Translations under genes and position numbers: made by a program
Notes under the pieces: model-generated
The model's input: only the letters and a program-made list of their open reading frames with translations
What the model was told of the DNA's origin: nothing
Database searches by the model: none
Sequence record: OQ067374.1
DNA from: Escherichia phage a20
Direction: 5' to 3' (one strand)
Length of the DNA stretch: 64,000 nt
In this document: positions 158 through 21,159 of the stretch, one piece after another
Position numbering within the stretch: the first letter of the stretch is position 1
Layout: every line of letters starts with the position of its first letter

Positions 158-769
158 CTTAATGAAATTAATTTCTACCGGATGAACAACAGGTTGAGCA
201 GTGATATATTGAGTAATTGCTTTCATGACTAGAGCTTCAGAACCAGGATTTTTCTCAACGAATTCACGTGCTTGGTTATGAGCTTCAAGTTCACTTAGTA
301 AACCACTTCGTTGGCATCCACGGTCTTGAGTACCCTGTTCAGATAAAAAGACGACGATGTATTTTTCATCGTCGTAGGGCTTAGCCAGTTGAGCAAATGT
401 TCCTTTACTTCCAAAAGGAGAGTTATGTCGCCACATCACGCCGTGAGGAGTTTCAACCTTCGTATATTCGTGCGGTCCATTTTTCTTAGTTTCTTGATGT
501 GGAACTTCATAGACCTTAGGGTTAGGACATTCAATAAAATGCTCATCTAAATCGGTCGAGAATATTAAAGTAAAACAATTACTGAATTTACCAACACCGG
601 CCTGATAAATTTTACCTTCAGAAGTTCTAATTTCACAAACTGAGCCGGCATCAGTAACTTCTAAAACTTCAAAAGGCTCAATAAGGTCATATGAGAACAT
701 GTTTTTAAGGCGTGGAGTAATATCCCCATTTTTAAAATTCATTTTATAAAAAGTATTAACTTTAAACAT
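155..769 (-). CDS. hypothetical protein (T4 30.x region); start moved to ATG 769
   Basis: ORF track 155..799; ATG at 767-769 preceded by GAGGAAATT SD and an upstream hairpin. Confidence 0.5.
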   Translation of the reverse strand: MFKVNTFYKMNFKNGDITPRLKNMFSYDLIEPFEVLEVTDAGSVCEIRTSEGKIYQAGVGKFSNCFTLIFSTDLDEHFIECPNPKVYEVPHQETKKNGPHEYTKVETPHGVMWRHNSPFGSKGTFAQLAKPYDDEKYIVVFLSEQGTQDRGCQRSGLLSELEAHNQAREFVEKNPGSEALVMKAITQYITAQPVVHPVEINFIK

Positions 770-780
770 AATTTCCTCAG

Positions 781-797
781 TGGGAGCCGAAGCTCCC
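781..797 (-). other. RNA stem-loop with UUCG tetraloop just upstream of SD
   Basis: gggagccgaagctccc palindrome; on minus RNA GGGAGC-UUCG-GCUCCC. Confidence 0.5.
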
Positions 798-804
798 AAT
801 TAAT

Positions 805-1170
805 TTAGATATCAAATTCGTTAAGAACTACATCAAAGATTGCTTCGAGATGTTCAGGTTTAGCTCGGTTACTCAGGATATGACGAATCCAAGTTTTAAC
901 CAGAAGTTTACGATTAACACCATTCCAGCAAGGATGAGTACCTAAATCACGCTGACGGAAATCATCATCTAATGCAATTTTAAAATTTGAACCTTCCATC
1001 GTGATTGAAACCGTGATACCGTTTTCAAATCGCATATAAACGTAATTAGGAGTCATGCACTGTTCGATTTCACAAACTGTACCGTTTTCGTGTTTCCATA
1101 AGCAAATAACTTCAGAAGAACCAGCGATACCGTTAGAAACATATTTACGTTCGAAGTTGATGTAGTTCAT
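805..1170 (-). CDS. hypothetical protein (T4 30.x region)
   Basis: 121-aa ORF packed in operon, own upstream promoter. Confidence 0.5.
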   Translation of the reverse strand: MNYINFERKYVSNGIAGSSEVICLWKHENGTVCEIEQCMTPNYVYMRFENGITVSITMEGSNFKIALDDDFRQRDLGTHPCWNGVNRKLLVKTWIRHILSNRAKPEHLEAIFDVVLNEFDI

Positions 1171-1207
1171 TTTATTCTCCAGATGTTTAAGTTGTTTGTT
1201 GGTACAG

Positions 1208-1241
1208 GTCTATAATAACATAACCTGTACCAAAGTAAACT
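1208..1241 (-). promoter_or_regulatory. early promoter, PeSL-like
   Basis: minus strand GTTTAC-N17-TATTAT flanked by inverted repeat GGTACAGGT/ACCTGTACC. Confidence 0.55.
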
Positions 1242-1244
1242 GTT

Positions 1245-1613
1245 TTATGCAACTTTAATCCAATTGTCTAAATTTAAAACACCTTTGGCTTTCATTTTTT
1301 CTATCAGGTTATCTGCTGTAATGCGTCCATTTTGATACCATGTAACATCTTCAGAGTAACCAGTTTCTTCGTCAACATATGTTTCTGAACGAATTTTACC
1401 GGTAATAATAGTTTTTAATTCGTATGTGTCACCTGTGAAAAAGTTTGCTAACACAATTTTCCAAGAGAAATCATCAGAAGGACCTTCAGGGGTCATACAA
1501 CCTACGAACTCAAATTGCTCTTTGTATAACATCCACTGGAATTCTTTAATTTCGATAGCTTTATAACCATCGTGGTCTTTACATTTGATGTATGAGTTCA
1601 GATTGATTTTCAT
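1245..1613 (-). CDS. hypothetical protein (T4 30.x region)
   Basis: 122-aa ORF with ATG start downstream of promoter 1650..1686. Confidence 0.5.
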   Translation of the reverse strand: MKINLNSYIKCKDHDGYKAIEIKEFQWMLYKEQFEFVGCMTPEGPSDDFSWKIVLANFFTGDTYELKTIITGKIRSETYVDEETGYSEDVTWYQNGRITADNLIEKMKAKGVLNLDNWIKVA

Positions 1614-8801: not shown

Positions 8802-9935
<1,134 letters not shown>

Positions 9936-9951
9936 TCAGTTAGTTTTTTTT

Positions 9952-9984
9952 AAATTGTACCACAATCCTTGTGGTATGTAAACT
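9952..9984 (-). promoter_or_regulatory. early promoter
   Basis: GTTTAC-N18-TACAAT with inverted repeat CCACAA/TTGTGG. Confidence 0.5.
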
Positions 9985-10393
9985 ACTTTTTCTTATGTTG
10001 GATATTCCAAGGCGGGTTGAACTTTTTGATAAAAAGTGGTTCTTCAAGGTCCATTGTTGCGATGGTCATTGAACCAAGTTCGTTGGTGACTGAAAGGTCA
10101 AAACATTGGCGGGCCCAGAATTCAACCTTTTTGCCTTGCATTAAGGCATCCAAAATCATAAGTGATTTTCTTGAATCTGAAGTCTGGTCTTTTCGATTTA
10201 TGGCTGTTCGATAATAGTTAATGCGTTTCTTTAAATTCTTGGTTTTACCAATATACACAAGTTCGTCATCTATAGCAATAGCGTATATGACATTTTTCTT
10301 ATTAGGGACATCAACTGTTTTAATTGTTGCATCTTCTAATAGCTCCAATTCTGTATATTTAATAAAGGAATATTCGGCGGCAATATCTTTCAT
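9983..10393 (-). CDS. denA: endonuclease II (GIY-YIG type)
   Basis: 136 aa; position between rnlA and nrdB as in T4. Confidence 0.8.
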   Translation of the reverse strand: MKDIAAEYSFIKYTELELLEDATIKTVDVPNKKNVIYAIAIDDELVYIGKTKNLKKRINYYRTAINRKDQTSDSRKSLMILDALMQGKKVEFWARQCFDLSVTNELGSMTIATMDLEEPLFIKKFNPPWNIQHKKK

Positions 10394-10401
10394 AATAAAG
10401 T

Positions 10402-10415
10402 GGGACCGAAGTCCC
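10402..10415 (-). other. UUCG-tetraloop hairpin 8 nt upstream of denA start
   Basis: gggaccgaagtccc between nrdB stop and denA ATG. Confidence 0.45.
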
Positions 10416-10419
10416 GTCC

Positions 10420-10922
10420 TTAGAAATATTTTTTGTATGAATTGATTACATTTTGGTCTACATCATTATCAATTTGTGCGACAAGATAAGAACTGATTTC
10501 AACTTCCTGAGGAGCGGCTTGAACTAAATCAGAGTTCAGATATTCACGAATCCAAGGATACGGATGCTTGGTCGGAGCATCAGTGATTGGGCATGGCAAA
10601 CCACACTGTTTCATACGAGACACAGTCAAGTAATCAACAAAAGCACACATACTCTGCGTATTGATACCTGGACATGTACCGTCTTTAAAGAGGTGTGCAG
10701 CCCATTCCTTCTCTTGACTATTTACTTCCATAAAAATGTCAACTGCTTCTTGTTCACATTCTTTAGCAATTTGAACCCACTCATCACCATCAGTACCAGA
10801 TTGAAGTTGACGGATAATGTACTGAGTACCCTTGAGGTGGAGTTGTTCGTCACGAGCAATGAACTTCATAATCTTTGCATTACCTTCCATAATTTCCATA
10901 TTTTTATGGAAGTTAAAGGTAC
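10420..10922 (-). CDS. nrdB: ribonucleotide reductase beta subunit, exon 2
   Basis: C-terminal NrdB sequence; junction reconstructs FYVSFA-C-TFNF matching E. coli FYVSFACSFAF; spliced CDS 392 aa. Confidence 0.75.
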
Positions 10923-12012
10923 CGTATGTTCGATTGAGCTCGCTAATTCTCAACCCGTTCTCTTATGAACTGCTGCATGTTACCATGCAGTCCAGACTAT
11001 ATCACAATCCCGGAGGGATTCTCCCCATTTCGAGTCGCTTGACCCTACGTCCGAAGACTAGTCGTTGAACCTTGTTTTGCAATTGTCGCCGTGCCATCGT
11101 TTATATGTTGATGGTGATAAATCTTTCTTATCACAATATGGACAATTCAATTGAATTCTATTTGGATTTAATTTACATCTGTCATTATGTTTTAGATAAA
11201 ATCCAGGACCTTTACCAATGTGACCACAAAAATCACATGTGATTTCTTTTTGTGCAGGATGGGTCCCGTTCTTAACCATTTCTAATGTTTTTGCTGATGT
11301 TCTTTTCTTATGGTCTTCTGATAAGAAATGATGTGAACCGTCATTTACCCGTTTTGATTGAGTTTCTGACTGCATTTTACCACCGCAAAATACATGAGTA
11401 CCTTCTTTTATAGCTGCAATATTGCGTTCTTTAACTTTTGCAATATGCTCAGCTTGTTGAAAATTATGTATACCTAATGCAACTCTATTTAAATTAGATT
11501 TACGCTGTATTTCACCATCTAAAAGATGAAATGTACCATTTTCTATCTTAGATTTAATAGAGGCAATATTTTTAGCTCGTACTTCAGGGATATTAAAAAT
11601 CTGGATTTCTCTAGATTTTGCGGCTTTAGAAGCTAATTCAGAAATTTCTTCAGGAGAATATTTCATTCTAAGCTTTATAGCATGACAAGCCTGGTAATCT
11701 TTTTGAGCTAAATGTATATCATAATGTTCCTGTATAGAAAGGCACATCAAATTATCTAAATCATTATTTTCACGGTTACCGTCTTTATGATGGATTTCGT
11801 ATGTTCTTCCATCAGAATCTTTAGGTATAGGTCCGTTAGCATCTATCCAAATTTTTCTATAGTTCAATTGTGCATCCTCTTAAAAGTATAATCATATTTA
11901 TATTATACTAATTAAAGGTGCAAGCAAAACCTTGGCTGCTAGTTTTCCTATAAAGGACTTTCCAGCAATTAAAGGAGTTTTCGATAAACGTTACCGTTTA
12001 AAGGCGCATTTT
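10923..12012 (-). mobile_element. group I intron in nrdB (1090 nt) carrying I-TevIII
   Basis: exon 1 ends on U, intron ends on G; boundaries set by frame restoration and conserved Cys. Confidence 0.7.
11058..11867 (-). CDS. I-TevIII: intron-encoded HNH homing endonuclease I-TevIII, full length
   Basis: 269 aa with Cys-rich zinc-finger C-terminus; TTG start after AAGAGGA SD; late-promoter-like TATAAATA at 11887..11894. Confidence 0.7.
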   Translation of the reverse strand: MNYRKIWIDANGPIPKDSDGRTYEIHHKDGNRENNDLDNLMCLSIQEHYDIHLAQKDYQACHAIKLRMKYSPEEISELASKAAKSREIQIFNIPEVRAKNIASIKSKIENGTFHLLDGEIQRKSNLNRVALGIHNFQQAEHIAKVKERNIAAIKEGTHVFCGGKMQSETQSKRVNDGSHHFLSEDHKKRTSAKTLEMVKNGTHPAQKEITCDFCGHIGKGPGFYLKHNDRCKLNPNRIQLNCPYCDKKDLSPSTYKRWHGDNCKTRFND

Positions 12013-12688
12013 ACGCAAAAGATACATAAAAACGAATAGCTTCTAAGGCATTAATAACGTGCAAACAGAGGTAAAGAGATTTCATTAAAGCACGTTTAGC
12101 TTCGGCTTCTTGTTTAATAGCTCGGTTTAAACGAAAGTCGGCATCAGGAGATTCTTTAGCTAATTCTACAAATTCTTTAGCATTTTCCCAATAACGAGTT
12201 TTAACCAGAACATCATCGTAATAGCGACCAATAGATTCAGCTCGTTTCATGATTGCTTCGTCTAATACAATCTCATCAAATACCTTAGATGGGTCCGTAT
12301 AAAGATTTCGCATAATATGAGTATACGAACGAGAGTGAATAGTTTCACTGAATGTCCATGTTGCAACCCACGTATCTAATGAAGGGTCGGAAATCAGTGC
12401 CATAAGTACCGCAGATGGGGCCCTGCCTTGGATAGAATCTAATAATGATTGATACTTAAGATTGTTTGTAAAGATGTCCTGTTGGAACTGAGGAAGCTTA
12501 TTGAACTGCGCAGAGTCCAACATCAAGTTTACCTCTTCTGGGCGCCAGAAAAACGACAATTGCTTTTCAATAAGTTCTTCAAAAACTTTATGTCGCTGAA
12601 TATCATAACGTGCGAGGCCAAGACCAGAACCAAAGAACATTGGTTCATTCAAAACATCGACTTGTTGTGTGTTAAAAACTGTACTCAT
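12013..12688 (-). CDS. nrdB: ribonucleotide reductase beta subunit, exon 1
   Basis: 225 codons of NrdB N-terminus ending ...RFYVSFA. Confidence 0.8.
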
Positions 12689-12727
12689 TATATTTTCTCA
12701 CTTAGTTATTAACTCATCCATGAGTAA

Positions 12728-12750
12728 ATTATAATCAAAAGTCTTAAAGC
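12728..12750 (-). promoter_or_regulatory. putative MotA-dependent middle promoter for nrdB
   Basis: minus strand GCTTTA-N11-TATAAT; Mot box overlaps nrdA stop. Confidence 0.4.
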
Positions 12751-15008
12751 TTACAAGCAGAACAATCTTCAGCTTTAGGTGTTTCTAATTCATAGTCATC
12801 TGTACCTGACCCATCACGAGTGTTATGATAGTAGAGGTTTTTTCCGCCAAAGTACCAGAAGTAAAGCAGATCGTCAAGCATTACTGACATTGGCACTTTA
12901 CCTTTCTCAAATACTGCAGGGTCATAGTAAGTATTAGCAGAAGCAGATTGGCACACCCATTTCAACATGATAGCAACTTGGGTCAAATAAGGTTTATTAC
13001 CTTTCTTAGCAAGTTTCCACGCATAATCGTAAAGACTCATGTTATGTTCGATATTAGGAACAACCTGACGGAAGTTGCCTTCTTTAGATTCTTTAATACT
13101 TACTGGACCACGTGGGGGCTCAATCCCGTTTGTAGAGTTTGATACTTGACTGCTTGACTCACAAGGCATGAGTGCAGACAACGTTGAGTTACGAATTCCA
13201 TGTTCTTTGAGTTCAGCTCGAAGTTCTTCCCAGTCACATACGTAGTTCGGGGCTGCGATTTGGTCAATCTTTTTATTGTACCAGTCGATAGGTAATTCGC
13301 CTCTAGACCATTTAGTGTCTGAATAATACTCGCAACATCCTTTTTCTTTGGCGAGTTTGATTGATGCTTTGATAAGGCCATATTGCAATCTCTCAAACAA
13401 TTCATGAGTCAAATCGTTAGCGTCTTCATATGAAGCAAAGTTAGAAGCTAACCATGCAGCATAGTTCGTAACACCAACACCAAGATTACGACGCTTTTTA
13501 GCTTTTAAAGCTTCTGGAACCGGATAATCCTGATAGTCTAACAGGTTATCAAGTGCACGTACTTGTACTTCAGCAAGTTCATTAATTTTATCTTGGTCTT
13601 GCCAATCAAATTTATCCAATACAAAAGCAGATAATGTGCATAAACCAATTTCAGCATCAGGACCATTCACATCATTAGTTGGAATAGCGATTTCACAACA
13701 TAAGTTACTCTGACGAATTGGAGCTTTTTCACGAATAAACGGAGTGTAGTTATTCGTGTTATCAACAAACTGTGGATAAATTCGAGCAGTACCAGAACGT
13801 TCAGTCATGAACAATTCAAAGAGTTCTAGTGCTTTGATTCTTTTCTTTCTGATTGTTGGGTCTTTTTCAGCTTTCTCATAAAGCTCACGGAATTTATCTT
13901 GATCTTCAAAGAATGAGTAATATAGTTCGCCTGACATTTCGTGAGGGCTAAATAAAGTAATATAATCATTTTTACCAAGGCGTTCCATCATAAGGTCATT
14001 AATCTGAATTCCGTAGTCCATATGTCGAATACGGTTTTCATCCACGCCTTTGTTATTTTTCAGAACTAATAGGTTCTCTACTTCTAAGTGCCACATCGGA
14101 TAATACGCTGTAGCAGCACCACCACGAATACCACCTTGAGAACAAGATTTTACTGCAGTTTGGAAATGTTTCCAGAATGGAATAACACCCGTATGTCGAA
14201 CTTCACCCATACCGATCTTAGAACCTTCTGCACGAAGCATACCAACGTTGATACCAATACCAGCTCGTTTAGAAATATATTCAATAATTGATGCTGAAGT
14301 TTTGTTAATAGATTTTAACGAATCACCGGCTTCAATAACTACACAACTAGAGAACTGGCGAGTCGGAGTACGAGCACCTGCCATAATTGGAGTAGGCAAT
14401 GAAACTTGATGAGTAGAAACGGCGTCATAAAAACGAATAATATGTTTCAAACGGTCATGAGTTTCGTCTTGGTGTAAGGCCATGCCAATAGCCATGATAG
14501 CAAACTGTGGAGTTTCATAAATCTTCCCGGTTGTTTTATCTTTAACTAGATATTTTTCTTTAAGCTGCATAGCACCAGCATAAGTCAGGTCAAAGTCTCG
14601 TTCATGTTTAATCTGTGAATCGAGATAAATGATTTCTTCTGCTGAATATTGAGACAACAGCTCAGGGTCATATTTGCCTTCATTAACACAATAAGAAATA
14701 TGGTCGATAAAAGCAGGCGGTTCAAACTGCCCATATACATCTTTACGAAGTGCAAACATTAGCCCTTTGGCGGCGACATACTGATAATCAGGTTCTTCGA
14801 CAGAAATCGAGTTAGCTGCAACTTTAATACAAATCTTCTGGATATCTTTGGTGCTCATCCCATCGACAAGATGGGTCTTAATTTCTTCGTACAATTCATA
14901 TGGGTCAATTTGTGTTCCTTCACATTGCCAAGTTAAGACTTGAATAATTTTCTGTGCATCAAAATTTTGGGATACACCTGAATTTTTCACTACTTTAAAA
15001 TTATACAT
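12744..15008 (-). CDS. nrdA: ribonucleotide reductase alpha subunit
   Basis: 754 aa, class Ia RNR large subunit; same length as T4 NrdA. Confidence 0.92.
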   Translation of the reverse strand: MYNFKVVKNSGVSQNFDAQKIIQVLTWQCEGTQIDPYELYEEIKTHLVDGMSTKDIQKICIKVAANSISVEEPDYQYVAAKGLMFALRKDVYGQFEPPAFIDHISYCVNEGKYDPELLSQYSAEEIIYLDSQIKHERDFDLTYAGAMQLKEKYLVKDKTTGKIYETPQFAIMAIGMALHQDETHDRLKHIIRFYDAVSTHQVSLPTPIMAGARTPTRQFSSCVVIEAGDSLKSINKTSASIIEYISKRAGIGINVGMLRAEGSKIGMGEVRHTGVIPFWKHFQTAVKSCSQGGIRGGAATAYYPMWHLEVENLLVLKNNKGVDENRIRHMDYGIQINDLMMERLGKNDYITLFSPHEMSGELYYSFFEDQDKFRELYEKAEKDPTIRKKRIKALELFELFMTERSGTARIYPQFVDNTNNYTPFIREKAPIRQSNLCCEIAIPTNDVNGPDAEIGLCTLSAFVLDKFDWQDQDKINELAEVQVRALDNLLDYQDYPVPEALKAKKRRNLGVGVTNYAAWLASNFASYEDANDLTHELFERLQYGLIKASIKLAKEKGCCEYYSDTKWSRGELPIDWYNKKIDQIAAPNYVCDWEELRAELKEHGIRNSTLSALMPCESSSQVSNSTNGIEPPRGPVSIKESKEGNFRQVVPNIEHNMSLYDYAWKLAKKGNKPYLTQVAIMLKWVCQSASANTYYDPAVFEKGKVPMSVMLDDLLYFWYFGGKNLYYHNTRDGSGTDDYELETPKAEDCSACKL

Positions 15009-15636
15009 AATAATTCCATGTTGGATAATTTGATGATTTTAGACGGCGTCTAACCGTTTGGGTGCTCATAGATAAAATTATTGACGCTTCATTTAATGTA
15101 TCATATATTACGTCGTTTATAATTACTTTCTTTGCAAATGGATTCTTAGCTCCTATCATAGCATTAGAAATAGCTTGCTTAGTTGATTCTTTTAATGGGA
15201 CTCCTTTAGAAATTTTTGATTTAATTTTTATATTGTATTGTCCACGTTTTTTACCTAATAAAGAATTTCGTATCTTTTCTTTAGTCTCTTCAGATTTAAC
15301 ATGTCCTAGTTTGGAACGAGATATTTTATCTTTTGTTTTTTGGTCTAATTTTCGCCCTTTAAGCAAATCAACCATTTTTGCTCTAGTCCATCCAAATTCT
15401 TTATTATTTCTAGAACTCATTAAATTAACCGCGGTTGCTAAACCTAAATTGTTCGGATATATTTTTAATAAAAGAAGATGAGCCAAATAATGTTCTGAAT
15501 ATGTTAATTTAACTAGATTGTATGACTCATTGGTGCCACCTAAACATTTTGGGATTATATGATGCCATTCACCATCTATATCTTCAAAATTTCTTTCTTT
15601 ATTTACCAAGTTTTTATATATTTTTAAATAATCCAT
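15001..15636 (-). CDS. free-standing HNH homing endonuclease (Mob-like); start moved to ATG 15636
   Basis: HNH motif WHHIIPKCLGGTNESYNLVKLTYSEHYLAH plus NUMOD-like repeats; stop overlaps nrdA start. Confidence 0.7.
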   Translation of the reverse strand: MDYLKIYKNLVNKERNFEDIDGEWHHIIPKCLGGTNESYNLVKLTYSEHYLAHLLLLKIYPNNLGLATAVNLMSSRNNKEFGWTRAKMVDLLKGRKLDQKTKDKISRSKLGHVKSEETKEKIRNSLLGKKRGQYNIKIKSKISKGVPLKESTKQAISNAMIGAKNPFAKKVIINDVIYDTLNEASIILSMSTQTVRRRLKSSNYPTWNYYV

Positions 15637-15687
15637 AGTATAATCCACTTTGTAGTATCAACGGGATAGTATTTATCCCGTTAATTT

Positions 15688-15710
15688 ATTATACACTTTT
15701 AAACTGAAGC
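15688..15710 (-). promoter_or_regulatory. putative middle promoter upstream of HNH gene
   Basis: GCTTCA-N11-TATAAT on minus strand, followed by hairpin AACGGGATA...TATCCCGTT in the leader. Confidence 0.35.
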
Positions 15711-15711
15711 G

Positions 15712-15966
15712 TTAATTATCCTCAGCAATAATTTCTTTATATTCTTTAGGAGTCAAGACTGTGATATTGAAATAAACCAACGGTTCTTTTTCTATACCGA
15801 ATCCACCACAGAATTCACGATATTCATAAATTCGTTCATGTGAATAACAAATGAATCGTTCACCTTTAACTGTGATTTCACTATTCGGTGAAGGGATATC
15901 TAGTTCGGTAGGATTTTTCATTTCAAAAATTGTGGTGCCATATGAATTAATAAAACGTAAAATCAT
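15712..15966 (-). CDS. hypothetical protein (nrdA.x position)
   Basis: 84-aa ORF, ATG start right after td stop. Confidence 0.5.
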   Translation of the reverse strand: MILRFINSYGTTIFEMKNPTELDIPSPNSEITVKGERFICYSHERIYEYREFCGGFGIEKEPLVYFNITVLTPKEYKEIIAEDN

Positions 15967-16278
15967 TTATACCGCCATTTTAGCTTTGATAGTTGGATGA
16001 GATTCATAATTTTTAAGAACGAAATCAGAATGTGTCATCGTTCCAGTAACCCAGTCCATTTGGATTTTTGTAGGCCAATTCTCAAAATTACTAGGCCAAT
16101 TAATTTCAAGAGAACACAACTCTTTAGGTTCACGACGAAGAACTTCTTTGCATTGTTCTACATGATTGCTGTAGATATGCGTGTTGCCGCCTGAGAACAC
16201 TAAATCACCTGGGATAAGGTTACACATCTTCGCTACAATATGCGTCAAGGCAGCGTACGAGGCAATGTTGAACGGTAG
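15967..16278 (-). CDS. td: thymidylate synthase, exon 2
   Basis: begins LPFNIASYA...; joined with exon 1 gives 286 aa as in T4. Confidence 0.9.
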   Translation of the reverse strand, partial: LPFNIASYAALTHIVAKMCNLIPGDLVFSGGNTHIYSNHVEQCKEVLRREPKELCSLEINWPSNFENWPTKIQMDWVTGTMTHSDFVLKNYESHPTIKAKMAV

Positions 16279-17294
16279 CATTATGTTCAGATAAGGTCGT
16301 TAATCTTATCCCGGAATTATATCCAGCTGCATGTCACCATGCAGAGCAGACTATATCTCCAACTTGTTAAAGCAAGTTGTCTATCGTTTCGAGTCACTTG
16401 ACCCTACTCCCTAAAGGGATAGTCGTTAGGCATTTATGTAGAACCAATTCCACTTATCAGATTTTACACGGTAAGTAACTAATCCTGATGAAATTTCAAA
16501 ATGTCTAGCCGCATCGGCTGCACATTCAAAAATAATCCCATCGCATGAAATCTTTTTGATGTTAGCTGGCTTTTTGCCTTTCATCTTTTCAGATAGTTTA
16601 GTTTTAGTTTTTTCTGAATGTTTGTGATTAAAGAACGGGTTATTTTCACCTGAACGTTTTCGGCACTTTCCACAAGTATCGGCCGAAGATGGTATGCGAA
16701 CACCGCATTTACAAAACTTGTGGTTTTCTGGATTCCATCGGCCATTTTTACTTCCGTGTTTACCATAAAGAGCTTTCCGACCATCAGGACCAAGCTTAAG
16801 CATCTTAGCTTTAACAGTTTCAGCTCGTTTCTTAGCAATTTCTTCTTTTAATGGATGATTTGAAAGCACATCACCAAAAGACGCATCAGCAATATTATAT
16901 CCATTAATTTTAGAATTTAGCTCTTTAATCCAAAAATTTTCTCGTTCAATAATCAAATCTTTCTCATATGGAATTTCTTCCAGTACAGAGCATTCAAAAA
17001 CATTACCATGTTTATTAAAAGACCTTTGAAATTTTATAGAAGAGTGAACACCGTTTTCAAGGTCTTTAAAATGTCTCTTCCATCTTTTCTCAAAATCTTT
17101 AGCACTTCCAACATACACTTTACCGTTTAAAGTGTTTTTAATCTGATAAATTCCGCTTTTCATAAACACCTCTTTTTATATAGAAGTATTTATTAAAGGG
17201 TAGTCCTACAATTTAGCACGGGATTGTCTACTAGAGAGGTCCCCCGTTTAGATAGATTACAAGTATAAGTCACCTTATACCTAGGCCTAAATTA
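16279..17294 (-). mobile_element. group I intron in td (1016 nt) carrying I-TevI
   Basis: 5' end reads UAAUUUAGGCCUAGGUAUAAGGUGACUUAUACUUG..., 3' end ...CAUAAUG; matches T4 td intron length and remembered sequence. Confidence 0.9.
16426..17163 (-). CDS. I-TevI: intron-encoded GIY-YIG homing endonuclease I-TevI
   Basis: 245 aa from ATG 17163; MKSGIYQIKNTLNGKVYVGSAKDFEKRWKRH... near-identical to T4 I-TevI. Confidence 0.92.
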   Translation of the reverse strand: MKSGIYQIKNTLNGKVYVGSAKDFEKRWKRHFKDLENGVHSSIKFQRSFNKHGNVFECSVLEEIPYEKDLIIERENFWIKELNSKINGYNIADASFGDVLSNHPLKEEIAKKRAETVKAKMLKLGPDGRKALYGKHGSKNGRWNPENHKFCKCGVRIPSSADTCGKCRKRSGENNPFFNHKHSEKTKTKLSEKMKGKKPANIKKISCDGIIFECAADAARHFEISSGLVTYRVKSDKWNWFYINA

Positions 17295-18666
<1,372 letters not shown>

Positions 18667-20505: not shown

Positions 20506-21159
20506 TTAATACTTACATGATTTGATTGTTTCTATGAACAATTTCTTAGCAGCATTTCCATCGATTTGAAGTATTTTTCGATATGCCTTTAATTTGGTAG
20601 AATAATTTTGCCAAACTAAGTTATCGGTGAGTTCGTCGTGCTTATCTATAATATTCAAAAACGAGTCCAACAATAAGAAAGTTTCAAATGAAATTATATT
20701 GCTTTGTAGCAATTTAAATATGTAGCTCGACTGAACGTTGTTATTATAATCAAATATCTCTTGAAGCGCACTAACTTCAACTTTCTTACTGAAATAGTAG
20801 ATGTTACGTACGTCTTCAGCAAACGACTCTTTAGCTTGTTTGAGACGTCCAATATATTCCCTATAGAAAACTAATGCATCAGCGTCCGATATCTCACCAA
20901 TCCATGCGTCTTGGTTAGCAACTAAGTTGCTTATGAATATCAAGGTGAGTTCCTTCAATTTATATTTCTCTGCTAGTTTTTCAAAGAAATATTTATCTCG
21001 GCGTTTTTGATACGCATTATCCGAAACACGCATGCACCAGTTATATTTGATTACATCATACCGACCACCAAAGTGGTTTTTGCACATCAAGTATAGTTTA
21101 TATACTGATTTACCGTTAATATAACGTTCTCCGTCAGGAGGCATGCGTATTTTAATCAT
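20506..21159 (-). CDS. 59: gp59 helicase loader
   Basis: 217 aa; T4 gp59 length and position. Confidence 0.85.
   Translation of the reverse strand: MIKIRMPPDGERYINGKSVYKLYLMCKNHFGGRYDVIKYNWCMRVSDNAYQKRRDKYFFEKLAEKYKLKELTLIFISNLVANQDAWIGEISDADALVFYREYIGRLKQAKESFAEDVRNIYYFSKKVEVSALQEIFDYNNNVQSSYIFKLLQSNIISFETFLLLDSFLNIIDKHDELTDNLVWQNYSTKLKAYRKILQIDGNAAKKLFIETIKSCKY

Follow-up and report, generated by a model that had tools for sequence, protein, structure and literature searches.

The DNA analysed here (referred to as the window) is a stretch of 64,000 nucleotides from Escherichia phage a20 (OQ067374.1), a Mosigvirus (RB69/JS09-like). On its minus strand, nrdA, the gene for the large subunit of ribonucleotide reductase, is preceded by a free-standing gene whose product has the features of an HNH endonuclease. 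The components of this locus, given in window coordinates, are as follows:

12689..12743, minus: nrdA-nrdB spacer of 55 nt (nrdA stop at 12744, nrdB start at 12688), the mobE slot in T4, empty here
12744..15008, minus: nrdA, ribonucleotide reductase large subunit, 754 aa, the presumed target (ORF; annotation of near-identical records)
14979..15008, minus: recoded nrdA 5' end, 10 codons (MYNFKVVKNS) where the empty allele has 7 (MQVTKSS) (allele alignment)
14979..15659, minus: the whole putative mobile block, 681 nt where the empty-site allele has 56 nt (alignment of 7 carrier with 6 non-carrier loci)
15001..15636, minus: gene of the free-standing HNH endonuclease, 211 aa, ATG at 15636 and TAA ending at 15001 (ORF list and sequence)
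15008..15001, minus: ATGTATAA overlap, with the nrdA ATG and the endonuclease TAA within 8 nt (sequence)
15010..15159, minus: C-terminal I-TevI-type helix-turn-helix DNA-binding domain, residues 160-209 (Pfam PF20987, PDB, Foldseek)
15142..15342, minus: helical linker with NUMOD3-type repeats, residues about 99-165 (Pfam, alignment, model)
15469..15570, minus: HNH catalytic core, residues 23-56 (EWHHIIPKCLGGTNESYNLVKLTYSEHYLAHLLL), predicted beta-beta-alpha fold
15682..15660, minus: resident leader hairpin AACGGGATA-AATAC-TATCCCGTT, 9-bp perfect stem and 5-nt loop
15688..15715, minus: resident nrdA promoter, outside the element, MotA-box-like GCTTCA-N11-TATAAT or TTAACG-16-TATAAT
15712..15966, minus: upstream neighbour, nrdA.2 homologue (DUF5496, 84 aa; Pfam PF17600, 3.8e-12)

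The endonuclease gene and its predicted product

The first-pass annotation of this DNA had described an HNH ORF of about 211 codons ending at 15001, with nrdA starting at 15008, and this proved exact. The two genes share the sequence ATGTATAA, an overlap that makes translational coupling between the endonuclease stop and the nrdA start possible. An alternative endonuclease start, GTG at 15648, would give a product of 215 aa. The gene is intergenic, being flanked by the nrdA.2 homologue (38% identity to T4 NrdA.2, E = 1e-16) on one side and by an uninterrupted nrdA on the other; in the Logan contig L017, which has an identical arrangement, the NrdA protein contains the Pfam ATP-cone and RNR domains. 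An Rfam gathering scan of positions 9500..18500 returned no intron model, but carries little weight, as it also missed the nearby group I introns of td and nrdB.

The product of the ORF matches PHROG 655 ("homing endonuclease"; 8e-45), it retains the residues that are invariant in its family, and its copies are intact, all of which argues against a chance ORF. In GenBank the gene already carries the label "homing endonuclease" (PQ480333, OR352946, MK639187). It had been noted at first pass that an interrupted ORF, or identity with a T4 nrdA.x gene devoid of HNH motifs, would refute the proposed insertion of a homing element. The reading frame is unbroken in each of the eight copies examined and the HNH motif is intact, while BLASTP comparison with NrdA.1 (DUF4326), whose gene occupies this position in T4, gave E = 5.5, i.e. 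no similarity, and a diverged nrdA.1 was therefore rejected. An antisense ORF (15062..15481) was likewise dismissed as a gene, as it has no Pfam match. The variable sites among the eight copies (6 synonymous and 8 non-synonymous) are at most a weak sign of selection on the endonuclease.

An alignment of 79 family members revealed that the invariant residues H25, H26, P29, G34, N40, E48, H49, H53 and L56 are all kept in the a20 protein, including the H-N-H catalytic and metal-binding residues H25/H26, N40, H49 and H53. In an AlphaFold2 model (pLDDT 83.5 for the whole endonuclease and 93-96 in the core), two strands (residues 23-26 and 41-44) and a helix (46-59) form the predicted beta-beta-alpha fold of the HNH region. 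The Pfam matches all lie under the cut-offs of that database: HNH_5 scores 14.4 bits (cut-off 27.5), NUMOD3 matches at residues 111-130, and I-TevI_DNA-bd (PF20987) reaches 25 bits (cut-off 27; 1.8e-5). The linker can be aligned to the NUMOD3 part of the MobE-like proteins of phages mogra and VEc20, and appears in the model as a run of short helices. For the C-terminal domain, a PDB sequence search gave a marginal match (E = 0.27) to the I-TevI DNA-binding domain (1i3j), the only such match within a homing endonuclease. The same structure was the best Foldseek match (probability 1.00, E = 3.6e-3), followed by I-HmuI (1u3e; probability 0.82, E = 0.25), both with a TM-score of at most 0.47 on the target. 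Direct comparison with T4 MobE, which had been suggested at first pass, yielded 48% identity over residues 1-63 of the a20 endonuclease (63 residues; E = 2e-20), with an HNH subtype common to both proteins, and the MobE orthologue of mogra was 33% identical over 178 residues (E = 7e-27). These similarities identify the a20 protein as a putative T4 Mob-type HNH endonuclease.

Resident expression signals and the boundaries of the block

Upstream of the endonuclease gene, the sequence GCTTCA (15710..15705) is separated by 11 nt from TATAAT (15693..15688); a sigma-70 scan reads the same site as TTAACG-16-TATAAT, with 10 of 12 matches. The window contains 34 matches to GCTTNA-N11-13-TANNNT, mostly on the minus (coding) strand, against an expectation of 11.0 +/- 3.6, and since no shuffle reached this number, the MotA-box-like pattern class is apparently real in this phage. 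The 96-nt leader folds with -19.4 kcal/mol (z = -3.8). Endonuclease-free relatives have both the promoter and the hairpin in exactly the same sequence, directly 5' of nrdA. They are thus nrdA's own signals rather than parts of the element, which is promoterless. The first-pass annotation was therefore right that a MotA-box-like promoter and a leader hairpin precede the ORF, with the correction that neither is a feature of the element; in future annotations this promoter should be attributed to nrdA and not to the endonuclease. We also considered whether a hairpin might hide the ribosome-binding site of the endonuclease, in the manner of Aeh1 mobE, and rejected this since the fold leaves the start region without stable pairing.

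The first-pass annotation had also stated that T4 carries a Mob gene between nrdA and nrdB, a spacer of 55 nt in a20; both statements are correct. In T4 this gene is mobE, and the MobE orthologue of the Mosigvirus mogra occupies the same slot. The a20 spacer overlaps a MotA-box-like promoter for nrdB (12726..12750). The nucleotide-metabolism cluster of a20 contains three endonuclease genes within 6.5 kb, and the region of the element lies between two introns (in td and nrdB), each of which has a full-length endonuclease ORF.

The ORF is present in 11 phage records and the "empty" site in 116; only about 7% of Mosigvirus-type records contain the element. When 7 carrier and 6 non-carrier loci were aligned, the fixed differences between the two groups were confined to one block (15659..14979), whose junctions are the same in every carrier examined and whose left junction falls directly after the leader hairpin. 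Carrier WFL6982 and non-carrier mogra are identical over 307 nt on the upstream side of the block and over 600 nt on the downstream side. Between carriers, the cassette differs at no more than 9 of 681 nt, and the nrdA flanks at up to 31 of 600 nt. Origin of the empty allele by deletion from the carrier allele was rejected, since carriers lack 56 nt of its sequence. The td and nrdB introns are present in some carriers and missing from others (SSE1 and L017 have neither intron and nothing between nrdA and nrdB, and WFL6982 has no td intron), which indicates that the element moves independently of them. The distribution among records, the identical junctions, the zero-difference flanks and the HNH domain together support the earlier proposal of an alternative insertion site for an intronless homing element at the nrd locus. 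Two negative results from these 13 genomes count against homing: no fixed protective differences were found outside the block among the 7 carrier and 6 non-carrier loci, and no co-conversion tract is visible past the 30 recoded nucleotides.

The block also exchanged the nrdA ribosome-binding site and the first 7 codons of the empty allele, so the element is not simply placed next to nrdA; this exchange, absent from the first-pass annotation, is the most telling property of the locus. NrdA consequently begins with MYNFKVVKNSG in carriers and with MQVTKSSG in the empty-site allele, and among 981 nrdA-bearing phage records the former sequence is exclusive to the 11 carriers. It has the same length as the N-terminus of T4 NrdA and a different sequence, and one serine codon has switched family (AGT to TCA), which favours import from a diverged nrdA over local mutation. 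The only Shine-Dalgarno-like element before the carrier nrdA ATG is GGA, located within the endonuclease coding region, compared with GAGGA in the empty allele; RNA structure around the nrdA start is not supported (z = -0.5). The NrdA N-terminus of carrier phages should accordingly be annotated as part of the mobile cassette. Searches for the donor lineage yielded no candidate: a collection of 5.8 billion proteins contained one cluster at an identity of at least 90% and no relative at 50-90%, and in IMG/VR no match was obtained with a degenerate DNA motif for an nrdA beginning MYNFKVVKNSG, nor with a protein-based search for the locus.

Interpretation as a probable homing cassette and alternative explanations

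The 681-nt block is probably a cassette encoding a free-standing, promoterless homing endonuclease of the T4 Mob-type HNH group, with a target in or near the replaced nrdA start; this reading is drawn from sequence comparison. As a type, such an element is nothing out of the ordinary, being already known in phages: in T4, mobE has no promoter of its own and shares its transcript with nrdA, and the MobE protein nicks the neighbouring nrdB in its 5' region (PMC2790892; review PMC2988022). The a20 endonuclease gene would be read from nrdA's own promoter and form the first cistron of that message. When a cell is co-infected by a carrier and a relative that has no endonuclease, the C-terminal domain of the enzyme would bind the empty allele, the enzyme would nick or cut this allele in or near the nrdA start region, and repair templated by the carrier would copy the cassette into it. 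The carrier itself would be immune through the exchange of the recognised sequence for the recoded nrdA 5' end. This last step depends on the candidate target, placed solely by which bases are replaced, and a cut deeper in nrdA (MobE cuts 122-126 nt into nrdB) would leave the carrier without immunity, which counts against the scheme. Translation of nrdA may start from the weak GGA site, may be coupled to termination of the endonuclease at ATGTATAA, or may involve both. A more speculative extension, which we hold only tentatively, is that synthesis of NrdA has been made dependent on translation of the endonuclease ORF, a form of "addiction" by which phages that lose the element would be penalised; the recoded N-terminal strand of the NrdA ATP-cone, which is portable, would at the same time act as an immunity determinant against self-cleavage. 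It is suggested by the deletion of nrdA's own ribosome-binding site and by the position of the new start codon inside the stop region of the endonuclease.

The same facts could be read in the opposite direction, the gene being a retired or domesticated endonuclease that no longer homes and is kept because the cassette holds the only translation start of nrdA, so that its deletion would silence that gene, with the patchy distribution produced by ordinary recombination among co-infecting Mosigviruses. The loss of the original GAGGA, the new start within the endonuclease ORF, a frequency of about 7% that indicates no sweep, the weak substitution pattern (6 to 8) and the fact that activity has never been demonstrated for several T4 Mob genes (PMC2988022, Table 1) are all compatible with this explanation. 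We nevertheless consider it unlikely, since the invariant catalytic residues are all kept and all eight copies are full length, and since the cassette varies far less than the phage backbones around it and sits on a haplotype identical to that of a non-carrier, a pattern more in keeping with recent directed spread than with old linkage.

An active enzyme might serve mainly in interference competition or marker exclusion, cutting the nrdA region or other sites of competitors and lowering their yield, with conversion as a by-product. Its target gene family and architecture are those of endonucleases that exclude the flanking markers of competitors (competition of the I-HmuI type, cited in PMC2988022), and the density of endonuclease genes in the nucleotide-metabolism cluster would suit such a role; the sequence, however, offers nothing that distinguishes interference from plain homing, and exact, repeated junctions are what homing predicts. 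We regard this explanation as quite improbable. Passive mobilisation of the cassette in trans by a neighbour, i.e. I-TevI (td intron), I-TevIII (nrdB intron) or a MobE, has a precedent in the defunct I-TevIII, which is moved in this way by T4 MobE (PMC2790892), and candidate helpers are at hand in the full-length endonuclease ORFs of the two flanking a20 introns. Since SSE1 and L017 have neither intron and no gene between nrdA and nrdB, since WFL6982 is devoid of the td intron, and since the block of fixed differences spans just 681 nt with no extended co-conversion towards td or nrdB, this mode of transfer is barely credible.

Comparison with known systems

The closest parallel to the candidate a20 homing cassette is T4 mobE (Wilson & Edgell 2009, PMC2790892). 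The two proteins belong to the same HNH subtype and have HH..PKC.GG..NLV.LT..EH..AH in common. Both genes are free-standing and promoterless, and each overlaps an adjacent reductase gene and has a ribonucleotide reductase gene immediately 3' of it; like mobE, the a20 gene would depend on the nrdA promoter. They differ in location, as mobE is found between nrdA and nrdB and the a20 gene 5' of nrdA; the latter would be the first cistron, whereas mobE is the second. Moreover, T4 MobE (141 aa) is devoid of the I-TevI-type helix-turn-helix domain that is predicted in the C-terminal half of the a20 protein, and leaves the nrdB start intact, whereas the a20 element replaces the start of the gene downstream.

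The mobE gene of the Aeromonas phage Aeh1 (PMC3045599; reviewed in PMC2988022) also encodes a Mob-type HNH protein at a non-canonical site, affects the nrdA coding sequence and requires nrdA expression to accommodate the insert. However, it splits nrdA, which gives rise to two polypeptides, while in a20 the gene remains undivided, the exchange being limited to its first codons and its ribosome-binding site. In modular structure, i.e. an HNH core, NUMOD3-type linkers and a C-terminal helix-turn-helix, the a20 protein resembles I-HmuI, the HNH nicking endonuclease of Bacillus phage SPO1 (1u3e), and the DNA-binding domain of I-TevI (1i3j), although these enzymes are intron-encoded, the a20 gene is free-standing and the similarity is weak.

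The T-even nrd region is a hotspot in which different free-standing endonucleases occupy alternative slots, depending on the isolate. This is shown by the endonuclease genes hef and segH, found instead of mobE and mobC in certain relatives of T4 (Sandegren et al. 2005, cited in PMC2988022). They reside in the mobE and mobC positions, and none has been reported 5' of nrdA, where the a20 element is located. The Mosigvirus locus may serve as a natural test system, since it offers a carrier/non-carrier pair with identical flanks, a 56-nt candidate target and, in the same genus, a MobE at the T4 position. It could be used to address homing by HNH nicking enzymes, the minimal co-conversion tract and the dependence of host-gene translation on an endonuclease gene. 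Besides the known routes, represented by T4 mobE between nrdA and nrdB and by Aeh1 mobE inside nrdA, the a20 cassette would represent a third route by which Mob-type endonucleases have colonised the T-even ribonucleotide reductase locus, namely insertion before nrdA with exchange of its start.

The nrd locus of phage a20 and its endonuclease

Every gene in this part of the window lies on the minus strand. The HNH-type ORF directly preceding nrdA encodes 211 aa from an ATG, or 215 aa from a GTG further upstream. It ends in ...AAT TAT TAT GTA TAA, within which the nrdA ATG is embedded, giving an 8-nt overlap of the two genes (ATGTATAA). All elements of the first-pass annotation were recovered: the ORF, its overlap with nrdA, a promoter-like site, a hairpin, and a spacer of 55 nt between nrdA and nrdB.

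Features of the locus, in gene order
17840..18427, minus strand: frd, first in this order
After frd, minus strand: td exon 1, intron ORF (16426..17169) and td exon 2; the ORF in the td insert encodes a 247-aa I-TevI-type endonuclease (GIY-YIG, I-TevI zinc finger, I-TevI DNA-binding domain)
15712..15966, minus strand: DUF5496 gene (nrdA.2 homologue), 84 aa, between td exon 2 and the HNH ORF
15710..15688, minus strand: sequence GCTTCA-N11-TATAAT
15682..15660, minus strand: perfect 9-bp hairpin
15001..15636, minus strand: HNH endonuclease ORF, between the DUF5496 gene and nrdA
12744..15008, minus strand: nrdA
12011..12688, minus strand: nrdB exon 1, after nrdA
11058..11867, minus strand: full-length 269-aa HNH_3 ORF (Pfam, 6e-13) in the nrdB insert, between nrdB exon 1 and the rest of nrdB

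Counting those in the td and nrdB inserts, a stretch of about 6.5 kb contains three endonuclease genes. The 269-aa ORF, labelled 'intron-like DNA endonuclease' in phage NRG-P0074, looks like an intact I-TevIII, as opposed to the truncated T4 copy; not all carriers of the element upstream of nrdA have the nrdB insert. An Rfam gathering scan of 9500..18500 detected neither of the two group I introns (td and nrdB).

The predicted protein matches PHROG 655 ('homing endonuclease', 8e-45) and, below threshold in all cases, the Pfam families HNH_5, NUMOD3 and I-TevI DNA-binding domain. Residues 1-63 are 48% identical to T4 MobE and 47% identical to a Tequatrovirus MobE-like protein, while the full-length MobE orthologue of Mosigvirus mogra shows 33% identity over 178 residues. 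All residues invariant among 78 aligned database relatives (H25, H26, P29, G34, N40, E48, H49, H53 and L56) are retained. In the AlphaFold2 model (mean pLDDT 83.5), a beta-beta-alpha core is followed by several short helices in a row, and the C-terminus forms a small sheet with a helix-turn-helix; among PDB folds the model is closest to the I-TevI DNA-binding domain (probability 1.00), then to I-HmuI (0.82), with modest scores of the kind that an extended multi-domain protein should give. The ORF bears no relation to NrdA.1 (DUF4326), the product encoded at this position in T4, and is therefore not a T4 nrdA.x gene. All eight copies examined are intact, and their 14 variable sites (6 synonymous, 8 non-synonymous) leave the invariant residues untouched.

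A cassette that replaces the start of nrdA

Seven carriers of the element and six non-carriers were aligned from the nrdA.2 homologue through nrdA, and all fixed differences between the two groups fall within 15659..14979. At the left junction, both alleles share the promoter and hairpin (...ACTATCCCGTT) and diverge directly afterwards; they meet again at GGTGTATCCCAA, which is nrdA codon 11 in carriers and codon 8 in non-carriers. Between these points, non-carriers have 56 nt, TGGAGTAATGTCTATCAACCTATACTGAGGAATAT followed by ATGCAAGTAACTAAGAGCAGT, comprising the GAGGA ribosome-binding site of nrdA and the codons for MQVTKSS, and carriers have 681 nt: a 23-nt leader, the endonuclease gene and ATGTATAATTTTAAAGTAGTGAAAAATTCA, coding for MYNFKVVKNS. 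The two segments differ in content, which rules out either allele being a deletion derivative of the other. The position upstream of nrdA noted in the first-pass annotation is thus correct, but this is not plain adjacency, since in the aligned loci the start of nrdA was replaced as well.

NrdA is 754 aa long in carriers, as in T4 (MQLINVIKSSG...), and 751 aa in non-carriers. The recoded stretch keeps the V-x-K-x-S-G pattern common to T4 NrdA and the non-carrier allele, which, going by E. coli NrdA, corresponds to the first strand of the ATP-cone; this domain is recorded for the NrdA of a Logan contig (L017), identical to carrier NrdA. The recoded DNA is far from the empty allele, and its switch of a serine codon from AGT to TCA is impossible in a single step. 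When the first 31 residues were used as a tblastn query, the MYNFKVVKNSG start turned up in exactly 11 of 981 nrdA-matching phage records, namely the 11 carriers. The cassette thus brings an nrdA start with it, the simplest explanation being that this is what is left of a donor's nrdA gene.

The promoter and hairpin, read in the first-pass annotation as preceding the ORF, do so, but they do not belong to the element: all six non-carriers have both without a single base change, ahead of nrdA by 35 nt. The endonuclease gene is therefore a promoterless cassette that probably now heads the nrdA message as its first cistron. In T4, seven free-standing endonuclease genes, including mobE, are likewise promoterless cassettes relying on upstream promoters (PMC2988022). 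The pattern GCTTNA-N11-13-TANNNT has 34 matches in the window, three-fold more than the 11.0 +/- 3.6 expected (no shuffle reached 34), with a bias to the coding (minus) strand and often ahead of genes.

Examples of MotA-box-like matches from the pattern scan
12726..12750, minus strand: in the spacer upstream of nrdB
16350..16373, minus strand
17896..17918, minus strand
20743..20767, minus strand

This enrichment fits a T4-style system of middle promoters in a20. In T4, the spacer upstream of nrdB contains a known middle promoter (PMC2988022). Enrichment, strand bias and the match at the nrdB spacer make a MotA-box reading of 15710..15688 plausible; the site also scores as a predicted sigma-70-type promoter. 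On the minus strand, the hairpin would form the very 5' end of the nrdA transcript; on the plus strand (15660..15682) a T-rich run comes after it and the site scores as intrinsic-terminator-like, with no plus-strand gene close by.

Distribution and mobility

The region is 97-99% identical to Mosigvirus phages (RB69/JS09 group), NRG-P0074 being the closest match (99.2%). A 1.8-kb query was fully covered in 11 of 580 matching phage records, the remainder lacking about 625 nt of its middle part, and a 101-nt probe spanning the site identified the empty allele in 116 records. The Logan metagenome contig L017 contains a twelfth copy in unchanged position. Most carrier GenBank records already name the gene 'homing endonuclease', with one mislabelled 'group I intron endonuclease'. 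A large protein collection contained no relatives at 50-90% identity, so the lineage is isolated; the nearest full-length relatives show about 30-35% identity and the same domain order (HNH, NUMOD3, I-TevI-type). These relatives, P0004 (249 aa) and P0012 (274 aa), are encoded directly downstream of thymidylate synthase genes on contigs of unrelated metagenomic phages (L018-L022), which could be coincidence or a hint of a long tie of the lineage to nucleotide-metabolism genes.

Carrier WFL6982 and non-carrier mogra are identical on both sides of the block, over 307 nt upstream and over the first 600 nt downstream. Between carriers, the block itself differs at 0-9 of 681 nt, and the first 600 nt of nrdA at up to 31. 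A uniform cassette in diverged backbones points to recent horizontal spread. Both introns accompany the element in a20 and NRG-P0074, WFL6982 lacks the td intron, and SSE1 and the Logan contig L017 lack both, so inheritance of the element is not tied to that of I-TevI or I-TevIII.

Mosigvirus mar007P3 (LR027383.1, 1213..1518, equivalent to window 15009..15711) has a third allele at the nrdA.2/nrdA junction: a T4-like nrdA.1 (DUF4326, 101 aa) overlapping the nrdA start, without the promoter-hairpin spacer. The junction thus has three states, namely nrdA.1, short spacer, and spacer with endonuclease. In mogra (MN850579.1), a 232-aa MobE orthologue is encoded at 547..1245, between nrdA and nrdB, and the upstream site is empty; none of the genomes examined has both endonuclease genes.

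Proposed homing mechanism and comparison with known elements

T4 mobE and nrdA are transcribed together. In a phage lacking mobE, the enzyme nicks the neighbouring nrdB on its non-coding strand, 122-126 nt into the gene, whereupon repair copies mobE in (PMC2790892). By analogy, we propose that the nrdA transcript would yield the enzyme, which would recognise the empty allele in or close to the region where nrdA starts, and that recombination-dependent repair would copy the cassette in. Carriers would owe their immunity to the recoding of 30 nt and the loss of the 35-nt segment upstream. Deeper in nrdA, the 7 carriers show no fixed protective change relative to the 6 non-carriers, so an enzyme cutting there would cut its own genome; SegH and Hef reportedly do so (Sandegren et al. 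2005). Judging from the sequence, translation of carrier nrdA must depend on a weak GGA located six nt ahead of the ATG, on termination-reinitiation at ATGTATAA, or on both; no stable RNA structure was predicted at the endonuclease start or the nrdA start.

The junctions, the carriers and empty sites, and the Mob-type protein support the initial view of a free-standing homing element at an alternative site of the nrd locus. A literature search found no description of an HNH element ahead of nrdA with an exchanged gene start. The a20 element belongs to a familiar kind and occupies a new site; it is of value as an experimental system although no surprise to specialists. In T4, in keeping with the first-pass annotation, mobE occupies the interval between nrdA and nrdB; its relatives have the same position in VEc20, ESh29 and Mosigvirus mogra, and Aeh1 mobE sits inside nrdA (PMC3045599), whereas the a20 element lies ahead of nrdA, with the start of this gene exchanged.
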